The notes: generated from the letters alone by a model not told the origin. 64,000 nt of DNA from an uncultured Holophaga sp. (GCA_963663375.1 OY760195.1:1881613-1945612); one strand, 5' to 3'; positions 5,993 to 43,369 are shown, counted from the first letter of the stretch. Made by a program: numbers and translations.

Positions 5993-6000
5993 CGAATTAG
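5260..6000 (+). CDS. IS630 transposase OrfB (DDE_3 catalytic domain); fused to OrfA by frameshift at A7 or inactivated
   Basis: DDE_3 motifs are present (FQDEGRF...MDQAGWH...PPYSPELNPAEHLW). The ORF is in the +1 frame relative to OrfA, and the productive part begins at the A7 tract. Confidence 0.75.
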   Translation: MSQRFMPPTKPGLGRRFHPARCIGCWPDTNGGRSCPVLSTRRPTRQRRLPLKKLETEIAEIVARESTNGCSVRLMFQDEGRFGLLGDPRRCWAPKGTRPVVRKRQLRQYTYAFAAVSPHDGVMDSLVLPWVDTETMSMFLRTVADRHRDEFIIMVMDQAGWHIAEALRVPKNMELAFLPPYSPELNPAEHLWDDLREKDFANRAFSSMNAVEESLVQGLRRLEQNPVATQRLTGFGWITSISLNAN

Positions 6001-6231
6001 TATGAAAGGGCGTTCGTTCCGCCTCTTTTGGCCCGTATTCGCGAGGGGTCAAGGCAACTGTGTTTCGCCTCATTCCGCTCAACACTACATGAGGCTACAA
6101 TTGTTGACTATTCCCCCCCAGCCGCAACTCATTTCGCCGCTTGTCTTGCATTGGGTGTACGGCCAGTTGGACGATCTTCTAACGGAGAAAACTTGGCGCA
6201 CTCTAGATTATCCGGATCTGTCGTACACCGT

Positions 6232-7710: not shown

Positions 7711-7764
7711 CTCCAGAGGATTGACCCCAACATTCAGATGGCTGGTATTGAGGCAAAAACTGGA

Positions 7765-7801
7765 GACAAAAAAAAGGCACCCATCGGGTGCCTCTTTCTT
7801 T
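7765..7801. terminator. Bidirectional rho-independent terminator
   Basis: Hairpin aggcaccc-atcg-ggtgcct with an A9 run upstream and a T-rich run downstream. It serves both the + strand lipoprotein gene and the - strand tRNA. Confidence 0.55.
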
Positions 7802-7878
<77 letters not shown>

Positions 7879-7954
7879 TGAATCGTTGAGTCTACGGGAA
7901 TCGGGGGACGAGGTCAAGACTGGAGCGATCAGGGTAGCCCTGTCGGCTCAGATT

Positions 7955-8563
7955 TTACTCGTCCAGATCCAGGGGCAGCCGGGTCACGGACCACATGCGA
8001 CCAAGGGCACTGGCCTCGGGCTTGGGTTTGCGGGGGCCCTTGGGCGTGGGTTCGGGGAGGGGGATCGCGGGAGCTTCCTCCGATGCTTCCGGCTCCAGGG
8101 GCAGGGCGGGCGGGCTTGGCATTGTCGCCACGACTCGAACGGTCTGGATTCTCGCTTTTCTCGGGCGGGTGGGAGGGCGCAGGACTTCCGGCAGCTCCTC
8201 AGTCTCTATGGAGGGCAGACTCCCGGGAGGCACAGAGAGGCGTCCCAGCACCTTCCGCAAGGCCTGCAAGGCGGTCCACAGGCGCGAGGGCGATACGGCT
8301 GTGGGTTCCGTTTCGCTGTGGGCGGCGGAGATGGGCAGTCCCTGGAGGCGCAGGCGGCAATCCGCCACAGTGCAGCCTTCGGCGAGCCACTGGCGGATGC
8401 GCTGCAGGCGGGCGATCTCCTCCTGGTGGTAGTAGCGCAGGTTGCCCTTAGAACGCCGGGGCTGCAGCTCGGGAATGACCTTCTCCCAGTAGCGCAGCTC
8501 CTTGGGAGTGGCGCCAACACGCCGGGCGGCTTCTCCGATCTTGAACCAGACCCGCTCGATCAT
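7955..8563 (-). CDS. MerR-family HTH transcriptional regulator with Pro-rich C-terminal tail
   Basis: The N-terminus (WFKIGEAARRVGATPKELRYWEK) matches the MerR HTH. The C-terminal ~90 aa are Pro/Glu-rich and low-complexity. Confidence 0.6.
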   Translation of the reverse strand: MIERVWFKIGEAARRVGATPKELRYWEKVIPELQPRRSKGNLRYYHQEEIARLQRIRQWLAEGCTVADCRLRLQGLPISAAHSETEPTAVSPSRLWTALQALRKVLGRLSVPPGSLPSIETEELPEVLRPPTRPRKARIQTVRVVATMPSPPALPLEPEASEEAPAIPLPEPTPKGPRKPKPEASALGRMWSVTRLPLDLDE

Positions 8564-8606: not shown

Positions 8607-9986
8607 TCACGGCTCCCTCGTCTCCACGCCGAGGGCCTTCAGGCGCTTGTACAGGTTGGAGCGGTCCAGTCCTAGCTTGTCGGCCACCCGGGTCATGTTG
8701 CCGCTCTGGAGCTTGAGTTCGCGCTGGATGTAGATGGACTCGAACCAGTCTCGGGCCTCCTTCAGGCTCGGGAATTCCGGGAAGGCGAAGGGATCGGGCT
8801 CCGCGAGGTGGCGGGTGGCCAGGGGGCCGAGGTCCCGGGTGGTGATCTCCATGCCCCGCCCCAGGATGAGGGCCCGCTCCATCAGGTTCTTCAGTTCGCG
8901 CACATTGCCAGGCCACTCGTGGTGCAGCAGCGTTTCCCGGGCCTCGGGGGCGAGGCGTTTCGCGGAGCGCCCGTAACTGCGGGCGAAGCGGGCCAGAAAG
9001 GCCTCCGCCAGGGTGATGAGTTCCTCGCCCCGTTCGCGCAAGGGGGGCACCCGCAGGGGCACCACCGCCAGGCGGAAGAAGAGATCCTCCCGGAAGCGCC
9101 CCGCCTTGATCTCTTCGGTGAGGTCCTTGTTGGTGGCAGCGATGACGCGCACATCCACGCTCACGGCGCCGCCGCCGCCCACGGGCTCGATGCGGCCCTC
9201 CTGCAGGGCCCGCAGCACCTTGGCCTGGGTCTTGAGGGACATGTCGCCGATCTCATCCAGGAAGAGCGTGCCGCCGTGGGCCTCGCGGAACTTGCCCTTC
9301 TGATCCCGAATGGCCCCCGTGAAGGCACCCTTCATGTGGCCGAAGAGTTCGGACTCGATGAGTTCCTCGGGGATGGCCGCGCAGTTGACTTCTACGAAGG
9401 GGCCCTTGGCCCGGGCGCTCTGGTCGTGGATGAGGCGCGCGACTTCCTCCTTGCCGCTGCCGTTCTCCCCGGTGAGCAGTACGCGACCCTCCGTGGGGGC
9501 CACCAGCTTCACGTCCGCCAGCAGCCGCTTCATGGCCGGGCTTTCGGCCATGAAGAAGCGATCCTGCTCCACCTCCTGCTGGAGACGCTGGTTTTCCTGC
9601 TCCAGGTGCCGCTGCTTGAGGGCGTTGCTCACCACCAGCAGCAGGCGGTCCAGATCCACGGGCTTTTCCAGGAAGTCGAAGGCCCCCAGCCGGGTGGACT
9701 GGAGGGCCGTGTCGATGTTGCCGTGGCCGCTGATCATCACCACGGGCAATTCGGGCCGCAGAACCTTGGCCCGCTGTAGCGTCTCCAGCCCGTCGATGCC
9801 CGGCAGCCAGACATCCAGCAGCATGAGATGGATGGCGTCGGGATCTGAATTCTCGATGAGCTCCAGGGCCTGCTCGCCCCGCTCCGCCTTGAGCACGGCG
9901 TAGCCCTCCTCGGAGAGGGATTCGCCCAGGGACCGCCGGATGCCCGGCTCGTCGTCCACGATGAGGATGGTCAGCAGGGAGCGCAT
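8607..9986 (-). CDS. Sigma-54-dependent response regulator (REC-AAA+ sigma54 activator-Fis HTH; NtrC/NtrX family)
   Basis: REC domain (LIVDDEPGIRRSL), Walker A GENGSGKE, the GAFTGA motif, and a C-terminal Fis-type HTH. The start is set at MRSLL (9986) inside ORF 8607..10061. Confidence 0.85.
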   Translation of the reverse strand: MRSLLTILIVDDEPGIRRSLGESLSEEGYAVLKAERGEQALELIENSDPDAIHLMLLDVWLPGIDGLETLQRAKVLRPELPVVMISGHGNIDTALQSTRLGAFDFLEKPVDLDRLLLVVSNALKQRHLEQENQRLQQEVEQDRFFMAESPAMKRLLADVKLVAPTEGRVLLTGENGSGKEEVARLIHDQSARAKGPFVEVNCAAIPEELIESELFGHMKGAFTGAIRDQKGKFREAHGGTLFLDEIGDMSLKTQAKVLRALQEGRIEPVGGGGAVSVDVRVIAATNKDLTEEIKAGRFREDLFFRLAVVPLRVPPLRERGEELITLAEAFLARFARSYGRSAKRLAPEARETLLHHEWPGNVRELKNLMERALILGRGMEITTRDLGPLATRHLAEPDPFAFPEFPSLKEARDWFESIYIQRELKLQSGNMTRVADKLGLDRSNLYKRLKALGVETREP

Positions 9987-10038
9987 CCCTAGAGAGTACG
10001 CCCTCGAAGCCCCAGCGTCAGCCAACACCTTTGGCCCG

Positions 10039-13000
10039 TCAGGTCTCCGAGGTGGGGGCAAGGTGCTCCTGATTGGGCATCACCAGAGGCAAAATCACCC
10101 GGAAGGTCGAGCCCTTGTCCACTTCGCTCACCACCTCGATGCGCCCCGAATGGGCCTCCACCAGGGCCTTGCAGATGCTGAGCCCCAGGCCCCATCCCTT
10201 CTGCTCATCTTCGACCCGGGTCTGGCGGAAGGGTTGGAAGAGGCCCGACTGCAGGGAGGGATCGATGCCCCGGCCCGTGTCCCAGACTTCCAGCACCCAG
10301 GTGTCCTCCCCAAGAATCGACCGGATGCCCACCGTGCCGGGCGCCTCGGTGAACTTCAGGGCGTTCTCGATGAGGTTGAAGAGCACCTGCTGAAGGGACG
10401 TGGTGTCCGCCAGGATCCAGGCCTGGTCCGCCCGAGGATCCAGCTCAAGGCTGTGGGAGAGTGCCCGCGCCTCGGCCTTCAACCTCAGGGTGTCCGTGAG
10501 TCCCTCCAGGGCCTCCGAGGGTCGGCACAGCCGCTGGTTGAGGCTCTCGGTGAAGGATTCGGACTTGGCCTGATCCAGCAGACCCCGGATGATCGCCTCC
10601 AGGCGCCGGGCCTCCCGGTCCAGGATATTGAGCATGGGATCATCCGATTCTCGCGCTTCGCCATCCCGGAGACGGTCCACGGAAAGCATGATGCTGGTCA
10701 GCGGTGAGCGCAGGTCGTGGCTCACGGTGCGCATCAATTGCACCCGGCTCTCCAGGGAGCGCTTCAACTGCTGGTGCAGGCGCTCCAGGGACTTGTTGCG
10801 CAGCCTCAGGGCTTCCGTGCGCTCTTCGACCTTGGCCTCCAGGAGGTGGGCCTGGCGCTGGAGCACCCGGAGGCGCAGATAGACCAGCAGGATGATGAGT
10901 CCGGCCCCCGCGAGAGTGAAGACTACGCGGGTGAAGGTGCGCTGATACCACGCCGGCCTCACCCGAATGGGCAGAGGGTCGGCTTCCACCCACTCCCGCC
11001 CGTCGAGGCTGGCCCGCAGGCGGAAACGATAATTGCCCGGCCCCACCTGGGCGACCTGGATACTGTTGGCGTTGTTCTCCACCGCCCGCCAATCGCCATC
11101 CAGCCCCTCGATCATCACCTGGTAGCGGGGCACGGAGGGGGCGGCCGGGAGCCCCGTATCGAAGATCAGATCCAGGGTGCCCGGCGTAGGGGGGAGATCT
11201 ACCCGCTCGGGTAGCCAGCGGGACTCGCTGCCCCAGGCAACCTCCATCACCCGCGGCTTCGGCATCTGCACCTTGGCCAGGGGCTCCCGCGTATCCAGCA
11301 CGCAGGCGCCCCCCTTCATGCCGATCCATAGCCGCTGTCGGCTGTCCAGCATCGCGGCATCGGTGGTGGTCTCGTCCGACAGCAGGCCTCGGTTCTTGGT
11401 GAGCAGCACCACCGATGAGCCCGAGATCAGCGAGACACCCTTGGCGTGGCCTACGGCGAGGGGCCCCGAGGGCAAGCGGCAGATCCAGTTGGGCGTGCCT
11501 TGAATACTGGCCTCCACGGGACCCAGGTGAACCCATTCCCCCGGTTTGCCCTTCACGAAACCGAAGACCCCCTCGTGGGTGGCGACCCAGAGCTGACCCG
11601 AGGGTTCCTCATACATGGTGGCAATGTTGGCGGAATGCACCGGCGTACCCGCAAAGGCCCGCTGGAACAGGCCGACCCCACCCTCCACCCGGAAGGTATA
11701 GAGCCCGACTTGCGTGGCCACCAGGAGCCCCGGCCCCGTGGGCCAAACCCGGGGCAGGATCTTGGGTACGGCGCCGCGCCCCACTTCCTGAGGCAGCGGG
11801 TGGAAGGCGACGAATTGGCCCTCCAGGGTGAGCTCGACCACGCCCTCCCACAGGGTCCCCGCCCACAGGCGCCCGCCGTGAATCAACAGGGAATGGGTCT
11901 GGACATTCCGGAGGCGCTCCGGTCCCGCCTCGATGCGCCCATCGATCCAGCGGAACAAGCCCCGGGTGGTGCCTAGCCAGACTCCTCCCTTGGGGTGGGC
12001 CAGCATGGACCAGATCTCGAGGGAAGGGACCCCCGGCGCGCTCTGCCAGCGTCCCAAGATCTGCGCCTTGTCATCCAGGAGAAACAGCCCCTGGGCGCCG
12101 CCCAGCAGCATGCGGCCCCCAGGGAGCTCATGGAACTGCGCCACCCCACCCAGGCCCAGCCCCGCGCCTGTCAAAGGGTCCGAGTGCAGCACCCGGAGGT
12201 CGGGGATGGCCTGCGCCAAGACGTCGCTGCCATCGGTACCGATCCAGAGCACGCCTCGGCGATCCCGATGCACCACCGCCACCCCGTCCCTGGGTAGGCC
12301 GTCCCGGAAGGTCCAGACTTTCATGTTTCCTTGGCGGTCCTTGATCAGGAGCCCATCGGTCCCCATGGCCAGGAGCATCTCGCCGCGCTCAGAAAAGGAG
12401 AGCGAGGTAAAGAGGGGACTCCCCGGCAGGGCCGGAAGGAACTGGGGCGCCCAATCACCCCCAGGGGTCTGACGGAGGAGCGTCTCAGGAAAGAGGGCCC
12501 AGAGGCTACCTTCCCGATCCCGGACGAGGGCCTGGACGCCCTTGCCCGCCAGGGCCGGTGGCAACACCGCACTCTGAACCGCCTTCCCATCCCAGCGGAA
12601 CAGGTTCCCTTTCCGGGAACCCATCCAGATCCCGCCCTGGGGATCCTCCGCCAGGGCAAAGATCGGCAGGTATTTCCAGGGATCGGGCAGCACCACCCGC
12701 TCGAACCGATCTCCCCGGCGACGGAAGAGCCCCTGGCGACCGCCCACGAGGATTTCGCCGTTCTGGCGCTCCAGGAGCGAATAGACATTGGTGATATCCA
12801 GTCCGTCGGCCTCTCCGAAATTCCGGATGCGGCTCCCCCGGATCTCCGCCACTCCGTATTCCTCGCCACCGACCCAGATGCTGCCTTGCCGATCCTGCAT
12901 CAGGCAGTTCACCTGGGTGGGGCGGAGCTGCTCCTGGGAACGATAGGGCCTAAAGCCCGAGGCGCCCAGTCGCGCCAACCCCTCCAGGGTGCCGATCCAG

Positions 13001-13194
13001 AGGAAGCCCTCGCGGTCCTCCAGGATCGTGCGGACCTGGCTCTGAGGGAGCCCGTCCCGATCATCGAAGCGACGAAAGGCCAGGGGTTGGGCCAGGGCGA
13101 AGGAGGCGACCCAACCCAATAACAGCAGAAGCAAGGCGAGTCCCCTGCCGCAGATGCGACCCAAGCCTGGAACTGGACTTGGGGGAAGGTTCAA
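10039..13194 (-). CDS. Sensor histidine kinase with periplasmic two-component-regulator beta-propeller/Y_Y_Y domain
   Basis: 1051 aa. Signal/TM segment, many beta-propeller repeats of the GxxxG/W-rich type, a Y_Y_Y-like segment, a TM helix, HisKA (VSHDLRSPLTSI) and an HATPase (GWGLGLSICKALVEAHSG). It lies immediately upstream of the sigma-54 response regulator. Confidence 0.8.
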   Translation of the reverse strand: MNLPPSPVPGLGRICGRGLALLLLLLGWVASFALAQPLAFRRFDDRDGLPQSQVRTILEDREGFLWIGTLEGLARLGASGFRPYRSQEQLRPTQVNCLMQDRQGSIWVGGEEYGVAEIRGSRIRNFGEADGLDITNVYSLLERQNGEILVGGRQGLFRRRGDRFERVVLPDPWKYLPIFALAEDPQGGIWMGSRKGNLFRWDGKAVQSAVLPPALAGKGVQALVRDREGSLWALFPETLLRQTPGGDWAPQFLPALPGSPLFTSLSFSERGEMLLAMGTDGLLIKDRQGNMKVWTFRDGLPRDGVAVVHRDRRGVLWIGTDGSDVLAQAIPDLRVLHSDPLTGAGLGLGGVAQFHELPGGRMLLGGAQGLFLLDDKAQILGRWQSAPGVPSLEIWSMLAHPKGGVWLGTTRGLFRWIDGRIEAGPERLRNVQTHSLLIHGGRLWAGTLWEGVVELTLEGQFVAFHPLPQEVGRGAVPKILPRVWPTGPGLLVATQVGLYTFRVEGGVGLFQRAFAGTPVHSANIATMYEEPSGQLWVATHEGVFGFVKGKPGEWVHLGPVEASIQGTPNWICRLPSGPLAVGHAKGVSLISGSSVVLLTKNRGLLSDETTTDAAMLDSRQRLWIGMKGGACVLDTREPLAKVQMPKPRVMEVAWGSESRWLPERVDLPPTPGTLDLIFDTGLPAAPSVPRYQVMIEGLDGDWRAVENNANSIQVAQVGPGNYRFRLRASLDGREWVEADPLPIRVRPAWYQRTFTRVVFTLAGAGLIILLVYLRLRVLQRQAHLLEAKVEERTEALRLRNKSLERLHQQLKRSLESRVQLMRTVSHDLRSPLTSIMLSVDRLRDGEARESDDPMLNILDREARRLEAIIRGLLDQAKSESFTESLNQRLCRPSEALEGLTDTLRLKAEARALSHSLELDPRADQAWILADTTSLQQVLFNLIENALKFTEAPGTVGIRSILGEDTWVLEVWDTGRGIDPSLQSGLFQPFRQTRVEDEQKGWGLGLSICKALVEAHSGRIEVVSEVDKGSTFRVILPLVMPNQEHLAPTSET

Positions 13195-18764: not shown

Positions 18765-19877
18765 CTATGGTTTCCCTGCCTCAACAAAGGTCATCTGATC
18801 GAGAAACAGCAGGTTTCCGTCTGGCTTGAACCGCCAGTTGAAATTACGCAAATCATCTGCGCACTCGATCCTGGATTTAACGTTTTGGGGAGTCGCAACC
18901 TCATGAAGGCGGCCATCTCCGAGATAAAAGTGCCACCACTGCACAACCGGGAAGGCTTTGGATGATTCGTCTGCATGCCGGTTGTGAAACCTCAGGAACT
19001 CCGACCACCAGGATTCAGAGGAAGTACCGGCAGAATCCGGGTGCTGGAATCGAGTATCGTCACCGAAGAGGCCCGCCGTTTCCGTGCGGGAGGCGATCAA
19101 GAGATCTCCATCCCGAGTGGGCTGAACCCCCAATAGCACGGGAAGCCCTGCCTTTTTTTCGACCACATCCTCGCTCAACCCGTTGAACAGCCGAACGACA
19201 CGCTTGAGGTTCCCTTTTCCCGAATCGACAACCCAGAAGTAGCCACTAGCCTGGGACGCGGCGACTAGATATCCGCCGCACCTAGTTATGGGATAAAGAC
19301 CTAGATCGAAAAGTCCAGGATATTGATGCTTCCCATCCGGCTTGAAGAAGGGTTTCCCCAGCCCCGCGTCGAAGGAATCCGTCACTTCGAAATCACCCGA
19401 GGAGGATACGCGCCAGATGTAGAAGGGCCTTTGGCCCTTGCCCTTGAGCATGCTGCCCACAGAAAGGTATTTCCCGTTACCAAGCTCGTATAGTTCGAAA
19501 GGAACCGGATGCTGGTCCTGCTCCCTGGCGGTAGGCCGCCATTTGCCCTGGGCCAGTACCCGCCATTTTCCTTCTTCGAACACAAAGATGGCTGTAAAGA
19601 AGAAGAGTCCCTCGGCATCCTGGGCGCGCCTGTGTTCCCGAGCATAGAGACGACCGTTGCAGTAGTCGTAGCAAAGCAGGCTGCCCCCCTGTAGGGGTTT
19701 CGGGTGCGGTACCTTCCAAACTATTTTTCCAGTGGGAGATTCACACTGCGCCGCAATGCCCCGTTCCGGATGGGTGACCACGAGATTAGGACCATCCCAG
19801 ATGCAGGGATTTGGAGCAAGAGCATTCTGCGCAACGAGCGCTCCCGAAAGGATCAAGAACAATCCCAGGGCTTTCAT
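18765..19877 (-). CDS. Hypothetical secreted protein (low-GC)
   Basis: The signal peptide MKALGLFLILSGALVAQNA begins at the internal Met, so the start is 19877. About 52% GC. No known domain. Confidence 0.5.
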   Translation of the reverse strand: MKALGLFLILSGALVAQNALAPNPCIWDGPNLVVTHPERGIAAQCESPTGKIVWKVPHPKPLQGGSLLCYDYCNGRLYAREHRRAQDAEGLFFFTAIFVFEEGKWRVLAQGKWRPTAREQDQHPVPFELYELGNGKYLSVGSMLKGKGQRPFYIWRVSSSGDFEVTDSFDAGLGKPFFKPDGKHQYPGLFDLGLYPITRCGGYLVAASQASGYFWVVDSGKGNLKRVVRLFNGLSEDVVEKKAGLPVLLGVQPTRDGDLLIASRTETAGLFGDDTRFQHPDSAGTSSESWWSEFLRFHNRHADESSKAFPVVQWWHFYLGDGRLHEVATPQNVKSRIECADDLRNFNWRFKPDGNLLFLDQMTFVEAGKP

Positions 19878-19896
19878 ACCGCCTCCCAAAAGAAGG

Positions 19897-34092: not shown

Positions 34093-35052
34093 TTAAGGCA
34101 CCTGCTCCCCGTGGGGATTGGACAGGAGATACAGCACGGCCATTCGCACGGGTACGCCGTTGGTCACCTGCTCGAGGATCACGTTGTTGGGGCCATCAGC
34201 CACTTCCGAGGTGATCTCGAAGCCGCGGTTGATGGGGCCGGGATGGAGCACGGCCACATCCTTCTTCGCGCGCTTCATGCGGGCCGCGTTGAGCTGGTAG
34301 TAGCGGATGTACTCGCCCTGGCCGGGGATGTACTGGCCCGTGCCCCGCTCGAACTGGGCCCGCAGCATCATGATGGCATCCATGTCGGGGATGACGGAAT
34401 CCAGGTCGTAGCTGAAGTCCACCATGGGCCAGGTCTCCCGCAGCTCCGTGGGCAGCAGGGTGGGCGGTCCCACCAGAGTCACCTTGGCGCCCATCTTAGT
34501 GAGCAGCCAGAGATTGGAGCGCACCACGCGGCTGTGGCGGATATCGCCGACGATTGCGACCTTGAGGCCCTCGAACTTGCCGAAGCGCTGGCGCAGGGTG
34601 TAGGCGTCCAGCAGGGCCTGGGTGGGATGTTCGTGGGCGCCGTCCCCGGCATTGATGATGCTGGCCTTCATGTGCCGGGACAGCAGCGCATGAGCGCCGG
34701 GTGCGCTGTGGCGCATCACGATGAGATCCGGATGCATGGCCTCCAGGTTCATGGCCGTGTCGATGAGCGTCTCGCCCTTGCTCAGGGAGCTAGTATCGGC
34801 GTCGAAGTTGATGATCTCGGCGGACAGGCGCTTTTCGGCGATCTCGAAGCTGTTGCGGGTGCGGGTGGAGTTCTCGAAGAAGAGGTTCACCACCATCCGC
34901 TTGCGCAGGGCGGGCACGATCTTGATATCGGGGCGTTCGCAGACTTCTTCAAAGGCCTCCGCCTGATCCAGCAGGGCCGTGATGTCCTGGGGACTGAGGG
35001 GTTCGATGCCCAGCAGGTGCTTGTGGGGAAAGATGTACCGCGTCGTGGTCAT
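34093..35052 (-). CDS. pyrB: Aspartate carbamoyltransferase catalytic subunit
   Basis: ATCase motifs (STRTR, HPTQ, LHPGP...). The start is at MTTTRYIF. Confidence 0.9.
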
Positions 35053-35053
35053 T

Positions 35054-35599
35054 TCAACTCCGTCCTTCCAGGAATACCCCATCCACCTTGTCGATTTCTA
35101 CCACACGCACGGAGACCCTCTGGTTGAGAGGCACTTCCAGCTTCAGGCCCACGAAATCCGCCTGGATGGGCAACTCGCGACCGCCGCGGTCCACCAGCAC
35201 CGCCAGCCACACCCGGGAGGGCCGACCATGATCCTGGAGGGCATCCAGGGCCGCGCGGATGGTGCGGCCCGTGAAGAGCACGTCATCCACCAGCACCACG
35301 GTCTTGCCCTTGAGGCGGAATGGGATCTCCGTGGGACGCACGATGGGGCTGCCCGCCATCTCCGTGAGGTCATCGCGATACAGGGAGATGTCCAGGATGC
35401 CGATGGGCACCTCCCGGTTCAGGATGGTGTTGAGCTTGGCCCCCAGGCGCTCCGCCAGGGGCAGGCCACGACTGCGGATGCCCACCAACACCAGATTTTC
35501 ATCGTGGCCGAAGGCTGCCGCGATCTCCCGGGAAACCCGCAGGAGATAGGCATCCATCTGCTGGGGATCGAGCAGGCAGGGTGCATGGGCATCGGTCAT
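35054..35599 (-). CDS. pyrR: Bifunctional pyrimidine operon regulator / uracil phosphoribosyltransferase
   Basis: PRTase motif [13 protein letters not shown] and a full-length PyrR match. It lies directly upstream of pyrB. Confidence 0.9.
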
Positions 35600-35693
35600 G
35601 GGAGGCCTCCGGACGGGAACCCCTCCAGTTTAGCCCAAGGACCTCCCCTTCCCGTTCTCATGAGGTCGGCTGTCCCCGCCAGCCCCGGCGCCA

Positions 35694-37346
35694 TCAGTGC
35701 TTCGGTCGCTCCAGGTAGGTCGCCGCGCCCTTCATCTCGGCGGTGGGGCCGTGGGCTGGCCCCTTGGCCTTGCTGCGCCGTGCGCCATGGGCCCACTGGA
35801 CCTTCAGGGCCGTGGCCTCGGGATGGCCCGGGGCGAGCCGGAGCACTTCGGCCAGATCGGCGAGGGCCTCGGCGCGCCGCCCCAGCTTCTCCCGGAGGAG
35901 GGCCTGCTTCAGGAAACCCCAGGTATTGCCGGGTTCCTGGGCCACAATCTCCGCGTATTCGGCCTCGGCCTCGATGAACCGCCCTCCCTCCTCCGCAACC
36001 TCCCCGCACAGAAGATTCGTCACCGTGCAGAAGCCCAGCCAAGCCTTTTGCTCCGCGAATTCCCGAGGCGAGTATGCGGCCTTCCGCTTGATCTGATTTG
36101 CCACGGCGTCCAGGTGGCGCAGGGCCCGCTCCGTGTGGACATCCACCCGGGCGAAGACCTCCGCATCGCCGGTGGCCCGGAAGAAATCCTTCGCGATGCG
36201 CCCCTCTTCCCGATAGCGGTCGAAGAGTCGGGTGCCGGGATAGAGCGCCAACGGGGAGATCTGCACATCGTGAGGGCGGACCTCGCGGATGAAGGCGGCG
36301 CTCTCCTCTACATCCTCCCAGGTCTCGCCGGGAATGCCGGTGATGAGAAAGACGCCGAGGTTGAGCCCTACCTTGCGCACCAGGGACAGCGCGTTGCGCG
36401 CCTGGCGCATGTTGGTGCCCTTGTCCAAAAGCGCCAGCACCCGCTCGCTGGCGTGCTCCACACCGAACTGCATGAACTCGCAGCCCGCCCGTTTCATGGC
36501 CACCAGGCGATCCTCGTCCACCAGATTCACGCGGCTCTGGCAGTTCCAAATGGGATGCAGCCCACTCCCCTGGATCAGCTCCATGAGTTTGAGAATGCGC
36601 CCCCTGTTGGCGGTGAAGGTGTCATCCCGGAAGGAGAAGTAGGTGAGCCCGTGCCGTGCCCGCAGCAGGTTCATCTCCTGAAGCACCGCCTCGGGACTGC
36701 GGAAGCGGATGGAACTGCCCCAGAATTCCGGCGTGTTGCAGAAGTTGCAGGTGGCCGGGCAGCCCCGGCTGGTGCTGAGGTACGCCAGCTGGCCCACGTC
36801 ATCGAGGAAATCAGCCTCGAAGTGCTGGGCGGGGAAACCGATGACATCGAGGTTCTCGAGGGGCGCCTGGCTCAGAGTCTCGCCCTCCCGCAGGATGAGG
36901 CCCGGCGCCCGTCTCCAGAGATCCGAACCCGGTGCCGCAGCCAGTCGTTCCACCACCCCCAGGAGGGGCAACTCGCCCTCGCCCTTCACGATGGCATCCA
37001 GGGCCGGACATTCCTGGAAGACCTCCGTGGCGAGATGGGTGGGATGGGGCCCACCCGCCAGCAGCACCGCGGCGGGATGGGCTTCCCGCGCCCACTGCAG
37101 CAGCTCGAAGCTCCGCTTGCGGTTGAAGGTGAACATGGAGATGCCGATGACCTCGGCTCTCTGCGACTGGAAGTAGGCCAACGCGTCCTTGCGGGACATC
37201 CCGGAGAGGTTGGCCAAGCGGCAGGGGTAACCCTTCTGCTTGAGCGCCGCCTGGAGATACCCCAGCCCGATGGGAAGGAAGCGCATCCACTCGTCGCCGA
37301 AACCGCTGCGGGGGGCGCTGTACACCAACAGAACCGAGGGCTTCAC
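35694..37346 (-). CDS. B12-binding domain radical SAM protein with C-terminal TPR region
   Basis: N-terminal cobalamin-binding domain (Rossmann-like), the radical SAM cluster motif CPATCNFC, and C-terminal TPR-like repeats. GTG start overlapping the stop of the upstream PilZ gene. Confidence 0.8.
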   Translation of the reverse strand: MKPSVLLVYSAPRSGFGDEWMRFLPIGLGYLQAALKQKGYPCRLANLSGMSRKDALAYFQSQRAEVIGISMFTFNRKRSFELLQWAREAHPAAVLLAGGPHPTHLATEVFQECPALDAIVKGEGELPLLGVVERLAAAPGSDLWRRAPGLILREGETLSQAPLENLDVIGFPAQHFEADFLDDVGQLAYLSTSRGCPATCNFCNTPEFWGSSIRFRSPEAVLQEMNLLRARHGLTYFSFRDDTFTANRGRILKLMELIQGSGLHPIWNCQSRVNLVDEDRLVAMKRAGCEFMQFGVEHASERVLALLDKGTNMRQARNALSLVRKVGLNLGVFLITGIPGETWEDVEESAAFIREVRPHDVQISPLALYPGTRLFDRYREEGRIAKDFFRATGDAEVFARVDVHTERALRHLDAVANQIKRKAAYSPREFAEQKAWLGFCTVTNLLCGEVAEEGGRFIEAEAEYAEIVAQEPGNTWGFLKQALLREKLGRRAEALADLAEVLRLAPGHPEATALKVQWAHGARRSKAKGPAHGPTAEMKGAATYLERPKH

Positions 37347-38458
37347 GTGGGCTCCCTGGGCGCCATGACGCCTTCGCCGCCCTCGTAGTGGCGGCGCAGC
37401 ACGCCCTGGAGCAGCCGCTGAAAGAAGGGCCCCGGCTTGGGGCCGATGACTACGGAGGCCGATGCCTTCAGTTCCGTGCCCAGTTCCATGAGCCCCGATG
37501 CCTCCACCCCCGTGCCTACCAGCAGGAAGGGTTGCCGGGGCGGGAGCACCTCCACCAGAGTGCGCAGGCGCTTGCGTTCGTCCAAGCCCAGGCTGGGCAG
37601 GTGGAAGAGGAGGAGCGCGGGATGGGCCATGACCGCCTCCTTCATGGCCGCCATGGTGGGTGGAATGCGGCGCAGGGGCGGGAGGTCCACCAGGTAGTTC
37701 CGCAACCCCTCTTCCATCTCGGCGGAGGTCGATACCAGCACCAGGCCCCCCGCGCCGGTGGTGGGGGCGGGGCTGAGGGGCGTACCCAGGCTTCGCAGGC
37801 GATCACTGTCTTCCTCCCGTCGCTGGAAGACCCACCGGGAGAGGGGCGTGAGCACGGGCTCCGGCAGGATGGGCACGAACTCGAGCCCCAGCGCGCGCCC
37901 CTGGATCCACCGCACCACGGCGGGAGCGTTGATCTTGAGTTCCTCCGCCACGGGAATCGTGACGGTCATGGGATTCCCGATCTCGAAGAGTGCATCCAGT
38001 TTTTCCTGCTGGGAGTAAATGCGCGCCCCCGTGGCGCTGAGACTCGCCAAAAGTCCGGTGCGGATCTCGAAGCGGGGGGTGCTGAAGGTGACCTCAATGC
38101 GCCCGACGCGCTCGGCGCGATAGGCCCCCCGCTGGTCATCCTCCCGAAGCGTCTTGGGCAGTTCCAGCCGCAGGCTGCGGCGCCCCTCCACCATGCCGAA
38201 GCCCAGCAGCCGCGTCTTGCCTTCCAGAAAGCGGGTGGCGTGGGGGAAGCGGAACCGCAGATCGGCGCTGCGCAGGCCGAACATCGCATCCTCGGCCCCC
38301 ATGGTGGCCCGGGCTTGGAGGGCACCTTGCTCCATCTGCAGGAAGTTGGATTCGAAGCGGAGGTAAGGCGTAACAAGGATCATCAGTTCGCGGTTGGCGC
38401 AAGCCTGGGCCAGGATCCCCTGGACCTCCCCCGCCGCACTCACCACGAAATGCCCCAT
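37343..38458 (-). CDS. YcgR-like PilZ-domain protein, paralog 1 (PilZN + PilZ + degenerate REC-like C-terminus)
   Basis: RxxxR (QRGAYRAER) and a degenerate (D/N)xSxxG motif (SLSATGARI). The N-terminus is shared with the two downstream paralogs (AQACxxRELxIL(A/V)TPYLRFES). The C-terminal ~130 aa form a receiver-like fold that lacks the acidic pocket. Confidence 0.6.
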   Translation of the reverse strand: MGHFVVSAAGEVQGILAQACANRELMILVTPYLRFESNFLQMEQGALQARATMGAEDAMFGLRSADLRFRFPHATRFLEGKTRLLGFGMVEGRRSLRLELPKTLREDDQRGAYRAERVGRIEVTFSTPRFEIRTGLLASLSATGARIYSQQEKLDALFEIGNPMTVTIPVAEELKINAPAVVRWIQGRALGLEFVPILPEPVLTPLSRWVFQRREEDSDRLRSLGTPLSPAPTTGAGGLVLVSTSAEMEEGLRNYLVDLPPLRRIPPTMAAMKEAVMAHPALLLFHLPSLGLDERKRLRTLVEVLPPRQPFLLVGTGVEASGLMELGTELKASASVVIGPKPGPFFQRLLQGVLRRHYEGGEGVMAPREPT

Positions 38459-38561
38459 GACCTCCCCGTTTGGCCTGCGCTCAGGCTGGTTCCACCATAG
38501 TTGGTGTAGTTCTTAAACTGTATCCTCATCCCTGCACGATAAGAGAAGGCGGGAGGCTTCG

Positions 38562-39692
38562 GTGACCATCACCATCAAGGACCAGAGTGACATCCGCGAA
38601 CTGCTGGCCCAGGCCTGCACCCGCCGGGAGCTGCTCATCCTGGCCACGCCCTACCTGCGCTTCGAGTCCAGCTTCGTGGCGCTGGAAGAAAACGAACTCC
38701 ACGTGCTGGCCACCATGAGCCGGGACGATGCGGCCTTCGGGCTCAAGACCAGCGACCTCAAGATCCGCTTTCCCCAGGGCCTTGGATTCTTCGAGTCCTC
38801 GGTTCAGATGCTCGGCCTGGGCCTCTACGAAGGGCGGCGCACGGTGCGCCTCTCCATCCCCAGGAGCGTCCAGGAGAATGACCAGCGAGTGGCCTTTCGG
38901 GTGGAGCGCCTGGGCAAGGTGGAGGTGACCTTCAGCACCCCCAGGGCCGATCTCTATACCGCCACTCTGCTGGATGTGAGCACCTCCGGCGCCCGGATTC
39001 ACACCCGTGTGGACCTGCCTGAGGGGGCGATGTACGCCGGGGATCCCATCCGGGTCTCCATTCCCCTCGACCACGGCATTCGCATCGAGGGGGGCGCGCG
39101 GGTGCGGCACATGCGGGGCCGCAGCGTGGGCCTGCAGTACCAGCCGGAGCTGGGCCCCGAGGTCCTGGAACCCCTCTCCCGGTGGGTCTTCCTGCGCCGG
39201 GAGGAGGAGCGGGAACGAATGGCCCGGCGCCTGGAGCAGGCGGCCTGGTCGGAACCCCAGGGCAGTGGCATCGCCGAACTGAGCATCCTCCTGATCAGCG
39301 CCGATCCCGATCTGGAACAGGAACTGAAGGAGGCTCTGGCGGGAGTTCGTCCCCTCACCCGCCTCGCCCCCGCGGCCCAGGCCCTCAAGGACGCCCTGTC
39401 CGCCAAGCCCTCGTTGGCCATCTTCCATGTGGGCGGCGCCGGACTGGACGAGCGGCGGCGCCTCAAGACCCTCCTCGAGATCGCCCAACGCAAGGTCCCC
39501 ACCCTCCTGCTGGGCACCGAGGTGGATGGCGCCACCCTCTTCGAGCTGGCCAGCGAATGGAAGGCCTCCAGCGCCATGAGCTGGAATCACGGGCGCGGCC
39601 CCTTCCTCGAGCGGCTGGTGCGTGGCATGATCCGGCGCCACATGGACTCGGGGGAAGGCCCCATGGCCCCCTTCGAGGCCGGGGAGCCCTGA
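38562..39692 (+). CDS. YcgR-like PilZ-domain protein, paralog 2
   Basis: Canonical c-di-GMP-binding motifs QRVAFRVER (RxxxR) and DVSTSGARI (DxSxxG). The C-terminus is a pseudo-receiver domain. Confidence 0.65.
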   Translation: MTITIKDQSDIRELLAQACTRRELLILATPYLRFESSFVALEENELHVLATMSRDDAAFGLKTSDLKIRFPQGLGFFESSVQMLGLGLYEGRRTVRLSIPRSVQENDQRVAFRVERLGKVEVTFSTPRADLYTATLLDVSTSGARIHTRVDLPEGAMYAGDPIRVSIPLDHGIRIEGGARVRHMRGRSVGLQYQPELGPEVLEPLSRWVFLRREEERERMARRLEQAAWSEPQGSGIAELSILLISADPDLEQELKEALAGVRPLTRLAPAAQALKDALSAKPSLAIFHVGGAGLDERRRLKTLLEIAQRKVPTLLLGTEVDGATLFELASEWKASSAMSWNHGRGPFLERLVRGMIRRHMDSGEGPMAPFEAGEP

Positions 39693-40819
39693 TGAAACTG
39701 CCCTTTCGGGAGTCCTCCAAGGCCCCGGGAGCCCTGGAGGGCGTCCAGCGGGACGAGGTTCTCGCGGAATTATGCACGCGCCACCAGGCCTGCCTGCTGG
39801 CCACCCCCTACCTCAGCTTCGAATCCCGGATGCTGGAAGTGACGCCCAGCGAACTCTGCGTGCGGGCCACCATGAGCCGCGAGGCGGCCAAGCACGCCCT
39901 GGGTCAACAGCCGCTGAAGCTGCGATTTCCCTGGGGCCTCACCTTCTACTCGGGTACGACCAAGGTGCTCGGCTACGAGCAGGGCGAGCAGCGCCGCACC
40001 CTGCGCCTGGCGATTCCACCCTGGCTGGAGCCCGATGAGCAGCGCAAGGCCTTCCGCCTGGAGCGGGTGGGCCGCTGTCACGGCGCCCTGGGAAACCAGG
40101 AGGGAAACCTGCTGCGCATCACCCTGGAAAACATCTCGCAGCATGGCGCGGGGGTCTTCTGCCTGGAACCCATTCCCCCCGAGGGTTTCCAGACTGGGCG
40201 CGTCCTGTCGCTGGCCCTGGGGCTGGACCAGGGGCCCAGCCTGCGCTTCGAGGCGCGGGTCTGCCACGGCCAGGGCCAATACCTCGGCCTCCGGTTCGAT
40301 CCCAGGCCGGGACCGGAAACCGCCGGGGCCCTCCAGGAATGGCTGGACCCGCGCATCGAAGACACTCAGCGCCGGTGGGACGACCGCGCCGAACTCAGGG
40401 CCCATGCCGAACAGGCGGCCAGACCCAAGCTCCCCCCCGCCGGTGTGCTGTTGCTCTCCAGGGATCCGACTCTGACCGCCCAGGTGGCCGAAGCGCTGGA
40501 CAACCTCCAGCCCGTGCGGAGCGCCCCCCCCAGCATGGCTGCCTACAAGGAGACCCTCGAACCGCCGCCCCTGCTGTTGCTTTTAGATATTTCGGGAGCC
40601 GACGGCGAGGAACGCCATCGGCTGCGGGGACTGTTGGAGGGCCAGCCGCCCGGCTGTCCAATCCTGGTGCTCGGTCGCGAAGGCGACCCGGACACCTGGC
40701 GCACCCTGGCCTCGGACCTGAAGGCGCGGCTCTACCTCACCTGGAATCCCACCCAGATGGTGTTTTTCCGCAGGCTGGTGCTGGGCCTGATTCAGCGGCA
40801 CTGGAAACAGGCCGAGTAG
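39692..40819 (+). CDS. YcgR-like PilZ-domain protein, paralog 3
   Basis: Its ATG overlaps the paralog-2 stop (tgATG). RxxxR (QRKAFRLER) and NxSxxG (ENISQHGAGV). The C-terminal receiver-like domain keeps Asp residues at the beta1 and beta3 positions. Confidence 0.65.
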   Translation: MKLPFRESSKAPGALEGVQRDEVLAELCTRHQACLLATPYLSFESRMLEVTPSELCVRATMSREAAKHALGQQPLKLRFPWGLTFYSGTTKVLGYEQGEQRRTLRLAIPPWLEPDEQRKAFRLERVGRCHGALGNQEGNLLRITLENISQHGAGVFCLEPIPPEGFQTGRVLSLALGLDQGPSLRFEARVCHGQGQYLGLRFDPRPGPETAGALQEWLDPRIEDTQRRWDDRAELRAHAEQAARPKLPPAGVLLLSRDPTLTAQVAEALDNLQPVRSAPPSMAAYKETLEPPPLLLLLDISGADGEERHRLRGLLEGQPPGCPILVLGREGDPDTWRTLASDLKARLYLTWNPTQMVFFRRLVLGLIQRHWKQAE

Positions 40820-40870
40820 AATCGACCCAGGACGCGCGATCGGCGCGCTTCCCAACCGCCCTTTTGTGGA

Positions 40871-41692
40871 ATGCCCATGCACCCTTGCGTCCCGACCCTG
40901 ATTGCGGTCCTTCTGGCCAGCCATCCCAGCGCTTCTCAGCCTTCCGCCTCGCCCTCCATTGAAGCTCCCGCTCCCGCGTCGGTACCCCCGCCCGAGGCCG
41001 TGAAGAGCCCCTCGGGCCTGGCGACCCTGCGCCTGAAGGCCGGTCGCAATGCCGTGCAACCCGGGCACAAGGATTACGTCACCCTGCACTACACGGGCTG
41101 GACCCGGGACGGAAAAGTCTTCGACAGCACCCGTACCCGCCAGGAGCCCATGATCCTGGGCCTGGAGCGCTTGATGAAGGGCATGGGCGAAGGCCTGCAG
41201 CTCATGGTCGAAGGGGAGACGCGGCGCATGTGGATTCCCGAGGCCCTGGCCTTCGCCGGAGCTCCGGGGCGTCCCCAGGGCGATCTGGTCCTCGAGGTGG
41301 AATTGCTCTCGGTGGATCCCCCGCCCACCCAGGCTCCCGTAGATGTGGCCCAGCCCCCGGCCGAGGCCCGCATCACCAGCTCGGGGCTCGCCTTCCGCAC
41401 CCTGCGCCCGGGCACCGGTTCCCAGCACCCCACCCGTCGGAGTCATGTCAACGTCCACTACACCGGCTGGACCACCGACGGAAAGATGTTCGATAGCTCC
41501 GTCCTCCGCCGGGAATCCTCCGGCTTTCGCCTCAGCGAAGTCATCCCCGGCTGGACCGAAGGCATCCAGCTCATGGTGCAGGGCGAGAAGACCCGCTTCT
41601 GGATCCCCCAGAAACTCGCCTACCGCGGCGAGCGCGGCAAGCCCTCGGGTGTGCTTGTCTTCGACGTGGAGCTGCTGAGCTTCTGGGAGTAG
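40871..41692 (+). CDS. FKBP-type peptidyl-prolyl cis-trans isomerase, tandem FKBP domains, secreted
   Basis: Signal peptide followed by two FKBP domains (each of the form V..HYTGW..DGK.FDSS......G..IPGW.EG...M..GE.....IP..LAYG..G). Both repeats are readable in the translation. Confidence 0.8.
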   Translation: MPMHPCVPTLIAVLLASHPSASQPSASPSIEAPAPASVPPPEAVKSPSGLATLRLKAGRNAVQPGHKDYVTLHYTGWTRDGKVFDSTRTRQEPMILGLERLMKGMGEGLQLMVEGETRRMWIPEALAFAGAPGRPQGDLVLEVELLSVDPPPTQAPVDVAQPPAEARITSSGLAFRTLRPGTGSQHPTRRSHVNVHYTGWTTDGKMFDSSVLRRESSGFRLSEVIPGWTEGIQLMVQGEKTRFWIPQKLAYRGERGKPSGVLVFDVELLSFWE

Positions 41693-41764
41693 GTCGCCAA
41701 CGTCAGTGAGGAAACCCACAGGAGCGAGGGGGTATCATGCCTCCATCGCCCCCGCGGAGTCCTC

Positions 41765-43369
41765 ATGTCCCGTGAAGCCATGTCTCCATGCGTCTTCGAT
41801 CGCCGCAGCTTCCTGGCTGTAGGGGGTGCTGCCCTGGCGGGGGGCGTGATGCTGCAGGGCGCCAAACCCAGTCCCTCGGCTTCCTTGTCCCTGGAAGAGG
41901 CCACCCTCGACCAGCTCCAGGCGGAACTTGCGGCGGGCCGTCTGACCTGCCGGAAACTGACATCCAAATACCTCGCCCGTATCCGTGCCCTCGACCAAGG
42001 CGGACCCGCCTTGCATTCGGTAATCGAGATCAATCCGGATGCCCTCGCCCTCGCCGAAGAACTCGATGCGGAACGGCAGAAAACCGGCCCTCGGAGCGCC
42101 CTGCACGGCATCCCCGTCCTGCTCAAGGACAACCTCGACACGGCGGATCGCATGAAGACCACAGCGGGCTCCCTGGCCCTGGCCGATGCGCCCGCCCCCA
42201 GTCGCGACGCCTTCATCGTGCAGCGTCTGCGGGAAACGGGCGCCCTGATTCTCGGGAAGACCAATCTCAGCGAGTGGGCCAACTTCCGTTCCACCCGCAG
42301 CACCAGTGGCTGGAGCGGGCGCGGCGGCCAGACTCGCAATCCCTACGCCCTGGATCGCAGTCCCTCGGGGTCTTCCTCCGGCAGCGCCGTGGCCGTGGCG
42401 GCCAACCTCTGTGCGGTGGCCGTGGGCACGGAAACCGACGGCTCCATCGTGAGCCCCGCCAGCATGGCCAGCCTGGTGGGCCTGAAACCCACGGTGGGGC
42501 TCCTGAGCCGCAGTGGCATCATCCCCATTTCCCACACCCAGGACACCGCAGGGCCGATGACCCGCACCGTGCGGGATGCCGCGATCCTGCTCACCCTGCT
42601 GGCGGGCCCGGACCCTCGGGATCCCGCCACCACGGAAGGCGGCCGCCCAGCCCCTACGGACTACGCTCGGCATCTGGATTCGAAGGGCCTGCAGGGCGCA
42701 CGCCTGGGGCTGGTTTCCGGCCTGCTCGGGCAGCACGGCCCCCTGGACCGCGCCCTTCGGCCCGCCCTGGAGGCGCTGAAGACCTGCGGCGCCACGGTGG
42801 TGGACGTGGAACTCACGTCCAGCGCCTACGACAAGGCCGAGCTGGAGATTCTGCTCTACGAGTTCAAGGCCGATCTGGAGGCCTACCTCGCGGGCCGGGG
42901 AGGGGCCGTGAAGAACCTCGCCGACCTCATCGCCTTCAACGAACGACACAAGGAGAAGGAGATGCCCTTCTTCGACCAGGAACTCCTGCATCAGGCCCGG
43001 GCCAAGGGACCGCTCACCGAGCCCGCCTACCTGAAGGCCCTGGAGGCCACTCGCCAGGCTCGACGGGATATCGAAGACGTTCTCAAAAAACACCAACTCG
43101 CGGCCCTGATCGCACCCACGGGCGCACCGGCCTGGCTCACGGATCCGGTGAATGGCGATGCCTCCGGTTTCAGCTGTTCCAGCTTCGCCGCCGTGGCGGG
43201 AACCCCGCACATCACCGTGCCCGCAGGGTTCGTCTGCGGCCTGCCCGTGGGCCTCAGCTTCTTCGGCCGGGCCTGGAGCGAGCCCACCCTGCTCGCCCTC
43301 GCCTATGCCTTCGAGCAGGCCACCCAGGCCCGGCGCATGCCCCGGTTCGCGCCCACGGCGAGCCTGTGA
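41765..43369 (+). CDS. Amidase-signature family enzyme with Tat signal peptide
   Basis: Twin-arginine motif [16 protein letters not shown]. Amidase signature [13 protein letters not shown] with catalytic Ser and Lys residues. Confidence 0.8.

Follow-up and report, generated by a model that had tools for sequence, protein, structure and literature searches.

Introduction

The known outputs of PilZ proteins, receptors of cyclic di-GMP (c-di-GMP), include flagellar braking, polysaccharide synthases, control of a chemotaxis methyltransferase and transcription. The described systems closest to the proteins treated here are the YcgR-type receptors, namely YcgR, PP4397 (FlgZ), PlzD and MotI, which have two domains, YcgR-N and PilZ, measure about 230-250 amino acids (aa) and are often encoded with flagellar genes. 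Here, we describe a locus in a stretch of 64,000 nucleotides (nt) from an uncultured Holophaga sp. (GCA_963663375.1 OY760195.1:1881613-1945612), referred to in full as the window, in which three paralogous PilZ genes (P1, P2 and P3) adjoin the gene of a radical S-adenosylmethionine enzyme with a B12-binding domain (rSAM) and not flagellar genes. The three proteins match the YcgR type by fold and not by the Pfam YcgR/YcgR_2 profiles, and they are longer (371-376 aa), since they carry an extra receiver-fold domain of about 130 aa and, in P1 and P2, a C-terminal tail as well.

Folds, motifs and neighbourhoods point to a new architecture of PilZ receptor, and the gene pairing suggests a new class of partner for it. 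In the literature searched, a radical SAM enzyme is undescribed as a dedicated partner of PilZ proteins and no paper brings PilZ and B12 radical SAM enzymes together, in agreement with the original prediction for this region, which had held that such coupling is not a described system.

Results

Gene organization of the locus

The features of the locus on which the analysis relies are the following, with positions counted from the first nucleotide of the window.

35694-37346, minus strand: B12-binding-domain radical SAM enzyme (rSAM) of 550 aa, which begins with GTG and ends in a TPR-like helical repeat and a disordered tail
35790-36140, minus strand: TPR-like helical repeat of rSAM, residues about 403-519, from the helices of an AlphaFold2 model
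36738-36761, minus strand: CxxxCxxC cluster motif of rSAM, C196-P-A-T-C200-N-F-C203, read from the sequence
37343-38458, minus strand: paralogue P1, 371 aa, with YcgR-N-like, PilZ and predicted pseudo-receiver domains
37346-37381, minus strand: C-terminal tail of P1, GGEGVMAPREPT, a variant of the family motif that also encodes the Shine-Dalgarno-like sequence of rSAM
38459-38561, no strand: divergent P1-P2 intergenic region, 103 nt, carrying a conserved box upstream of P2
38562-39692, plus strand: paralogue P2, 376 aa, GTG start, with YcgR-N-like, PilZ and predicted pseudo-receiver domains and a kept tail; the conserved partner lineage
39282-39647, plus strand: receiver-fold domain of P2, residues 241-362, a predicted pseudo-receiver
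39648-39689, plus strand: C-terminal tail of P2, SGEGPMAPFEAGEP, which fits the family motif GG[ED][SGA]P[MLI][AV]PxE
39692-40819, plus strand: paralogue P3, 375 aa, with the same three domains and without the tail motif

The arrangement of four genes, with P1 on the minus strand and P2 and P3 divergent from it, had been predicted, and it agrees with the list of open reading frames (ORFs), with the junction sequences and with publicly available gene calls for this genome, made independently, which match all four gene boundaries exactly. The three paralogues share 31-43% of their residues over their full length (P1/P2 43%, P1/P3 31%). The stop codon of P2 and the start codon of P3 overlap by 1 nt (TGATG), as expected, whereas the overlap of P1 with rSAM, given originally as 2 nt, measures 4 nt (GTGA). 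Within the final codons of P1, 5 nt before the rSAM GTG, there is an AGGGAG sequence that resembles a Shine-Dalgarno element. Judging from this junction, P1 is tightly and translationally coupled to rSAM, so the proposed co-translation stands for P1; it does not extend to the conserved partner P2, since the latter is transcribed divergently.

A PilZ gene and rSAM are kept together across Holophagales

Homologues of P2 are confined to Holophagales, where they occur in Holophaga, Geothrix, Mesoterricola and many metagenome-assembled genomes. Neighbourhoods were mapped by tblastn over 77 loci, in which rSAM is 67-95% identical, and adjacency was judged wherever the contig extends sufficiently. 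Of the 74 such Holophagales loci, nearly all have rSAM adjoining a member of the PilZ family, and the pair is kept in about 70. The flanks vary between loci, with pyrR/pyrB, a GGDEF gene or PurL on one side and an amidase gene 0-6 kb away on the other. Even in a distant Holophagales genome, whose rSAM is 54% identical, a divergent family member of 379 aa still adjoins, and the flanks there are unrelated (CutC, SDR and SpoIIE on one side and MFS on the other). The conservation of the neighbourhood, which had been named as a check on the coupling, is thus found in roughly 70 loci with varying surroundings.

Three layouts account for this pairing. In the window, Holophaga foetida and their relatives, rSAM and P1 lie on the same strand and diverge from P2, with or without P3; in Geothrix and its relatives, rSAM diverges from a single PilZ gene; and in Mesoterricola-type loci, a GGDEF gene and rSAM lie on the same strand and diverge from P2, with or without P3. 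The H. foetida locus holds the GGDEF gene, rSAM, P1, P2 and P3 together. A neighbor-joining tree of the family resolved P1, P2, P3, Geothrix-type and 'unlinked' clades. In 15 loci, members of the P1 clade lie upstream of rSAM in the same orientation, overlapping it (GTGA) or abutting it in window-type loci, and the P3 clade is kept in 11 loci, including that of H. foetida. Because H. foetida has one gene of each of the P1, P2 and P3 clades, the triplication predates its split from the lineage of the window. The triplet, originally regarded as the functional unit, is not what is conserved: the conserved unit consists of one tail-bearing PilZ protein and rSAM, and by its distribution the triplet is a lineage-specific elaboration of this two-gene module.

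In seven loci, the gene directly downstream of rSAM on the same strand encodes a Reg_prop-GGDEF cyclase (with 20 nt between the two genes in H. foetida), which ties the locus to c-di-GMP synthesis.

L001 2125-5223, L003 3076-6120, and also L014, L023, L025 and L072: Reg_prop (beta-propeller) GGDEF gene, about 1,000 aa, in H. foetida and Mesoterricola-type loci

The window has pyrR and pyrB at this place. Elsewhere in the window, positions 8607-13194 hold a 1,051-aa protein with a distant similarity (24%) to the Reg_prop-GGDEF protein of H. foetida, and downstream of it an ORF of 484 aa, the N-terminal sequence of which (LTILIVDDEPGIRR) resembles a receiver domain. The match at 10762-13098, considered as the missing cyclase, has no more than 24% identity, at a distance of 22 kb.

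The same PilZ/pseudo-receiver family includes a fourth clade, which is without the tail motif and 42-47% identical to P1.

L070 9521-11077, L071 8179-11083 and L073 8175-11083: fourth-clade loci

In three genomes, unlinked paralogues are divergent from the gene of a 551-aa CBS-DRTGG-DHH/DHHA2 family II pyrophosphatase and convergent with a gene of a GlpX-type fructose-bisphosphatase. An unlinked paralogue and its pyrophosphatase look like a second receptor-enzyme gene pair, and this divergent placement implies a tendency of the receptor family to be paired, member by member, with one particular gene for an enzyme.

Short intergenic regions with group-specific boxes

The divergent intergenic regions are short (70-110 nt) and carry group-specific conserved boxes, which look like promoters. 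In the comparison across loci, the box upstream of P2 reads CTTAAAC-N19-ACGATAAG, and no conserved palindromic operator was evident across groups. Scanning of positions 34900-41900 for sigma-70 consensus promoters and terminators returned nothing above shuffled expectation. Rfam was searched for riboswitches across the entire window at gathering score and, at E<=1, across positions 35400-41000; neither search gave one for cobalamin or for c-di-GMP.

A YcgR-like double barrel joined to a predicted pseudo-receiver

The PilZ domain (PF07238) was recovered by Pfam above its gathering score of 22.5 in all three paralogues, with 33.1 bits for P1 (residues 110-211), 38.0 for P2 and 33.7 for P3, as had been anticipated. 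Beyond PilZ, the three proteins have no Pfam match, and the NCBIfam scan of the same proteins was empty. In particular, no match by sequence to YcgR-N (PilZN, PF07317) or YcgR_2 (PF12945) was obtained in Pfam, and none to Response_reg (PF00072) at E<=1 in Pfam or NCBIfam. The flanking domains are recognizable by structure alone. An AlphaFold2 model of P2, built on an alignment of 69 sequences, has a mean predicted local distance difference test score (pLDDT) of 84.9, with three well-predicted domains and two disordered segments, a linker (residues 225-234) and the tail (365-376). A Foldseek comparison of P2 with the PDB placed Escherichia coli YcgR at the top (E=1.6e-13), followed by PP4397, MrkH and PlzD, and in a further fold comparison the flagellar brakes YcgR and MotI were the best structural matches. 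The isolated YcgR-N domain of P2 reached a target-normalized template modelling score (TM-score) of 0.81 in a fold search of the PDB. The C-terminal domain is predicted to adopt the (beta-alpha)5 fold of CheY-like receivers, though the Response_reg profile gives no match to it. The architecture of the original prediction, YcgR-N-like, PilZ and receiver-like, is therefore found by structure, and the model describes a putative c-di-GMP receptor with a YcgR-like double barrel (YcgR-N and PilZ) fused to a pseudo-receiver.

The ligand-binding and receiver residues were counted per clade in an alignment of 99 family members, extracted from the 77 related loci and the window. Receiver positions were mapped by predicted secondary structure and strands together with the sequence alignment, not by three-dimensional superposition. 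The RxxxR motif (R109 and R113 in P2 numbering) is invariant in 99 of 99 members, including all three paralogues of the window. The second motif, D/NxSxxG, is canonical across all clades save for isolated substitutions; in the window it reads DVSTSG in P2, NISQHG in P3 and SLSATG in P1, where Ser replaces D/N. P2 and P3 are thus canonical and P1 is not, as had been noted. Because the canonical Asn is found in 16 of the 17 P1-clade proteins and Ser in the P1 of the window only, the degenerate motif is a single-strain substitution and not a property of the paralogue. The idea of a graded loss of ligand-binding residues among the paralogues finds no support in these counts.

In the receiver-like domain, the equivalents of Asp12 and Asp13 are Ser and a small residue in every clade, and the equivalent of Lys109 is aromatic or aliphatic across the family. 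At the Asp57-equivalent position, 85 of the 88 P1, P2, Geothrix-type and unlinked proteins have His, and 8 of the 11 P3 proteins have Asp, among them the P3 of the window. The pocket positions of P2 are S246/A247 (Asp12/Asp13), H289 (Asp57) and W341 (Lys109). The acidic pair being missing in all clades, the phospho-acceptor residues are not progressively lost from one paralogue to the next, contrary to what had been proposed. The census led us to reject a graded decay of the motifs, and the absence of the acceptor pocket from all clades to reject a true receiver function. By its residues, the domain is a fixed and stable pseudo-receiver in every clade, not a decaying receiver.

Two further residues are recorded here. 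The His at the phospho-acceptor position of P2 (H289) is encoded at 39426-39428, and a Cys in the AQAC motif of the YcgR-N-like domain (C19 of P2, 38616-38618) is kept in 91 of the 99 family members; both positions have their equivalents in P1 and P3.

A conserved tail, predicted to be disordered, on the PilZ neighbour of rSAM

The C-terminal tail of the family has the consensus GGESPMAPxE, is near-invariant and is almost always present on one copy per locus. It is found in 62 of the 67 proteins of the P2 and Geothrix clades, in none of 11 P3 proteins and in none of four rSAM-unlinked paralogues. In that set of 67, conservation reaches 99% at P367 and at P370 and 94% at G364. In the AlphaFold2 model, residues 365-376 of P2 have pLDDT <50, and the tail is predicted to be disordered; its mean conservation (0.77) nevertheless exceeds that of the folded domains (0.70-0.72) and that of the other disordered linker (0.36). 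The family member of the distant Holophagales genome has a tail that reads GHGESPMAPLEAE. In P1, a variant, GEG[VI][ML]AP[KR]EP, is kept only in close relatives of the window (L004, L006, L007 and L008). Disordered and yet constrained, the tail behaves in these comparisons like a short linear motif, recognized by a partner or modified by an enzyme, and its distribution follows that of rSAM.

rSAM belongs to a widespread family of B12-domain enzymes

The enzyme carries both domains expected from the original reading, Radical_SAM (PF04055, 81.8 bits) and B12-binding (PF02310, 49.9 bits), together with the CPATCNFC motif, whose three cysteines (C196, C200 and C203) are invariant in a family alignment of 48 sequences. 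The proposed TPR repeats gained partial support: Pfam matches remain below the gathering score (TPR_2, 21.5 bits vs a cut-off of 27), and the AlphaFold2 model of rSAM (pLDDT 89.1, predicted TM-score 0.89) has a helical repeat at residues 403-519 and, at residues 523-550, a disordered end. This TPR-like region is conserved in Holophagales, and many members of the rSAM family have TPR domains in precomputed Pfam lists.

The nearest solved folds to rSAM are those of AprD4 (the best match), MgmA (a glutamine methylase of methyl-coenzyme M reductase (MCR), the second), OxsB, TsrM, CysS and TokK, at 16-21% identity. All 45 NCBIfam matches are far below their cut-offs, with BchE at 146/481, ApyD at 143/750 and HpnJ at 129/578 bits. 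By its modelled fold, rSAM belongs to the B12-domain (class B) radical SAM enzymes, and the structural matches do not indicate a substrate. AprD4 carries a B12-binding domain without using cobalamin, and the domain alone is therefore no proof of cobalamin use.

To assess the reach of the rSAM family, 1.84 billion cluster representatives were searched, and a search with a profile came next. Relatives that are 35-42% identical and have equal length and architecture were found in Geobacter, Geomonas, Polarisedimenticolia and Wallbacteria. From these matches, rSAM is a member of a widespread and uncharacterized B12-rSAM-TPR family, which is present also in Geobacteraceae and other Acidobacteriota.

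Several observations were made on the surroundings and the end of these enzymes. A NUDIX hydrolase gene in Geobacter (L080 6610-7023) and a CN_hydrolase gene in Polarisedimenticolia (L081 6096-7004) overlap the start of the related B12-rSAM-TPR gene, and both overlaps are possible clues to the substrate of the family. The distant Holophagales genome and that of Wallbacteria both have a TLC/MFS-type transporter gene beside rSAM (L082 8622-9920 and L083 5461-6873). The enzyme of the window also has a disordered C-terminal tail of its own (35694-35783, residues about 521-550), which reads KGPAHGPTAEMKGAxxYLxRPK; it is common to the window and Geothrix and is missing from the 514-aa protein of H. 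foetida.

Other features of the window

A low-GC stretch at 5260-7878 (GC 0.557 for 6001-8000 vs about 0.65 elsewhere) comprises a candidate IS630-like transposase, recognized by eye (ORF 5260-6000), a low-GC ORF of 560 aa (6028-7710) and a tRNA gene on the minus strand (7805-7878); the stretch resembles a small tRNA-associated island. A second low-GC stretch (18765-19889, GC 0.572) holds a 374-aa ORF on the minus strand, with a signal-peptide-like N-terminus and without the high-GC3 signature.

Discussion

A possible adaptor for a radical SAM enzyme

The reading that we tentatively prefer, and to which we give somewhat less than an even chance, is that the locus encodes a Holophagales-specific module in which a c-di-GMP-responsive adaptor is dedicated to rSAM and acts on it by protein contact. 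Starting from the observed folds, motifs, gene coupling, conservation of the pair and distribution of the tail, we infer c-di-GMP binding, contact with rSAM and the direction of control. The ligand would bind at the junction of YcgR-N and PilZ, as in YcgR, and change the arrangement of the domains; this rearrangement would alter the contact of the pseudo-receiver and tail with rSAM, most plausibly at its C-terminal TPR-like repeat, and rSAM could thereby be switched, recruited or stabilized. TPR domains commonly bind peptides, and the conserved TPR-like repeat of rSAM was for that reason counted in favour of an adaptor. As for the history of the genes, an ancestral single PilZ gene may have triplicated in the Holophaga lineage, including the window; P2 would have retained the ancestral divergent position and the tail, P1 would have moved into the rSAM operon and P3 would have lost the tail. 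The other two paralogues probably act on P2 as modulators, and pairing through the receiver-like domains is one way in which they could do so. A more specific form of the proposal, which is possible though on the doubtful side, is that c-di-GMP directly gates a cobalamin-type radical SAM enzyme, the GGESPMAPxE tail either docking on the TPR-like repeat or serving as a substrate, and the three paralogues tuning the response in the Holophaga lineage.

A number of observations weigh against a dedicated adaptor. No PilZ gene is adjacent in the three genomes with related rSAM genes that were inspected (Geobacter, Polarisedimenticolia and Wallbacteria), and the TPR-like region is conserved also in rSAM relatives without an adjacent PilZ gene, so its ligand need not be the PilZ tail. 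Within Holophagales, Geothrix fermentans DSM 14018 has, by tblastn, no PilZ gene at the locus but a gap of 378 nt (L078 9623-10001), and its rSAM adjoins PurL, as in Geothrix rubra. The TPR-like region of this enzyme has not drifted (0.78-0.88 vs a mean of 0.85 among other Geothrix), a comparison that lends no support to co-dependence of the tail and the TPR-like repeat. Most P1-clade proteins other than those of the window's close relatives have lost the tail motif, although P1 is the copy most tightly coupled to rSAM. Moreover, all loci come from one bacterial order, and shared ancestry inflates their counts. Since the rSAM relatives and the G. fermentans enzyme are without an adjacent PilZ gene, the enzyme very likely has a function and substrate of its own, and PilZ would be an accessory acquired in Holophagales. 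The same distribution speaks against the tail as sole substrate of the enzyme and favours a regulatory role for the PilZ protein.

The link between the two genes may instead lie at the level of DNA, with the PilZ proteins acting as c-di-GMP-dependent transcription factors of the MrkH type that bind the divergent intergenic region and so regulate their own transcription along with that of the rSAM operon. Regulators and their targets are typically laid out as divergent genes with little sequence between them, and the kept divergent arrangement, with 70-110 nt between the genes and conserved boxes that are compatible with such binding without being specific to it, fits this explanation. So does the placement of the rSAM-unlinked paralogues, which likewise diverge from an enzyme gene (that of the CBS-DRTGG-DHH pyrophosphatase), and the loss of a regulator with retention of the enzyme at the G. 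fermentans locus would be easily explained. We nevertheless consider it unlikely. The proteins have no recognizable DNA-binding domain, YcgR and PP4397 outscore MrkH in the fold search, and no palindromic operator is evident as a conserved element across groups; transcriptional control also leaves unexplained both the near-invariant disordered tail, limited to the rSAM-adjacent clades, and the translational coupling of P1 with rSAM. Alternatively, the tail of the PilZ protein could itself be the substrate of rSAM. Modifying enzymes and their substrates are often encoded side by side, and a residue in GESPMAP, modified for instance by C-methylation, might tune the c-di-GMP receptor. The tail is disordered, near-invariant and limited to the clades that keep rSAM adjacency; protein- and peptide-modifying B12-domain radical SAM enzymes exist, MgmA being the second-best structural match of rSAM, and sub-threshold NCBIfam similarity extends to ApyD and to the MCR methylase family. 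Against a tail substrate stand the family members of other lineages, which are 35-42% identical to rSAM and share its architecture but are encoded away from any PilZ gene, and the undegraded rSAM of G. fermentans; another substrate is therefore very likely for the enzyme. The structural matches, in turn, are those expected of the class in general (21% identity) and point to no substrate. Taken together, modification of the tail appears very unlikely.

It could also be that the PilZ proteins are ordinary motility regulators of the YcgR type, such as flagellar brakes, and that their adjacency to rSAM is inherited synteny between functionally unlinked genes. Their best structural matches are indeed the flagellar brakes YcgR and MotI, a paper on related Acidobacteriota reports flagella for several of the new isolates (PMC13362970), and G. 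fermentans, which has few motility COGs (PMC8841776), is without PilZ at its rSAM locus; the origin of every locus from one order is in keeping with synteny as well. Simple inheritance fits poorly, however, with an adjacency that survives rearrangement on both sides and persists down to 54% rSAM identity, or with the incorporation of P1 into the rSAM operon in window-type loci. No flagellar gene occurs in any inspected neighbourhood, where gene calls reach 7-10 kb on either side, and the pseudo-receiver and the tail are foreign to YcgR. A role confined to motility is thus quite unlikely, and the dedicated adaptor remains the reading that we tentatively prefer.

Were c-di-GMP to gate rSAM directly, radical SAM chemistry would be a new class of output of c-di-GMP signalling. 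The pair is kept across environmentally abundant Holophagales (Geothrix, Holophaga and Mesoterricola), and it offers a testable entry both to the function of the B12-rSAM-TPR family and to c-di-GMP signalling in Acidobacteriota. The near-invariant disordered tail provides a handle for interaction and modification experiments.

Comparison with known systems

Control of an enzyme through contact with a c-di-GMP-loaded PilZ domain is the concept realized by the PilZ domain of BcsA, by Alg44 and by MapZ-CheR1, which are among the structural matches of the PilZ domain. It is the same concept as proposed here, whereas the partner in this case would be a radical SAM enzyme. MrkH of Klebsiella, a c-di-GMP-dependent activator, shares the two-domain PilZ fold with the proteins of the window; MrkH acts on fimbrial genes and carries neither a tail nor a domain of the receiver type.

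With regard to the third domain, fusions of PilZ with a receiver have been described before, among them PixA of Myxococcus xanthus, which shares the domain order of the window proteins, PilZ preceding the receiver fold. No gene for a histidine kinase neighbours that of PixA, an orphan, and the protein keeps its phosphorylation residues, including Asp180 (PMC8316039). It is thus phosphorylatable, whereas the family described here is without the acidic pair and the Lys in all clades and has His at the acceptor position in P1 and P2; PixA, for its part, has neither a YcgR-N domain nor an rSAM partner. Pseudo-receivers are also found as the N-terminal atypical receivers of TadZ/CpaE, and TadZ, which serves in pilus localization, joins its own to a ParA/MinD-type ATPase.

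On the side of the enzyme, rSAM shares with AprD4, MgmA, OxsB, TsrM, CysS and TokK a B12-binding Rossmann domain at the N-terminus, a radical SAM core and a CxxxCxxC motif. It differs from these solved class B members in its low identity to them (16-21%) and in the additional TPR-like repeat at its C-terminus.

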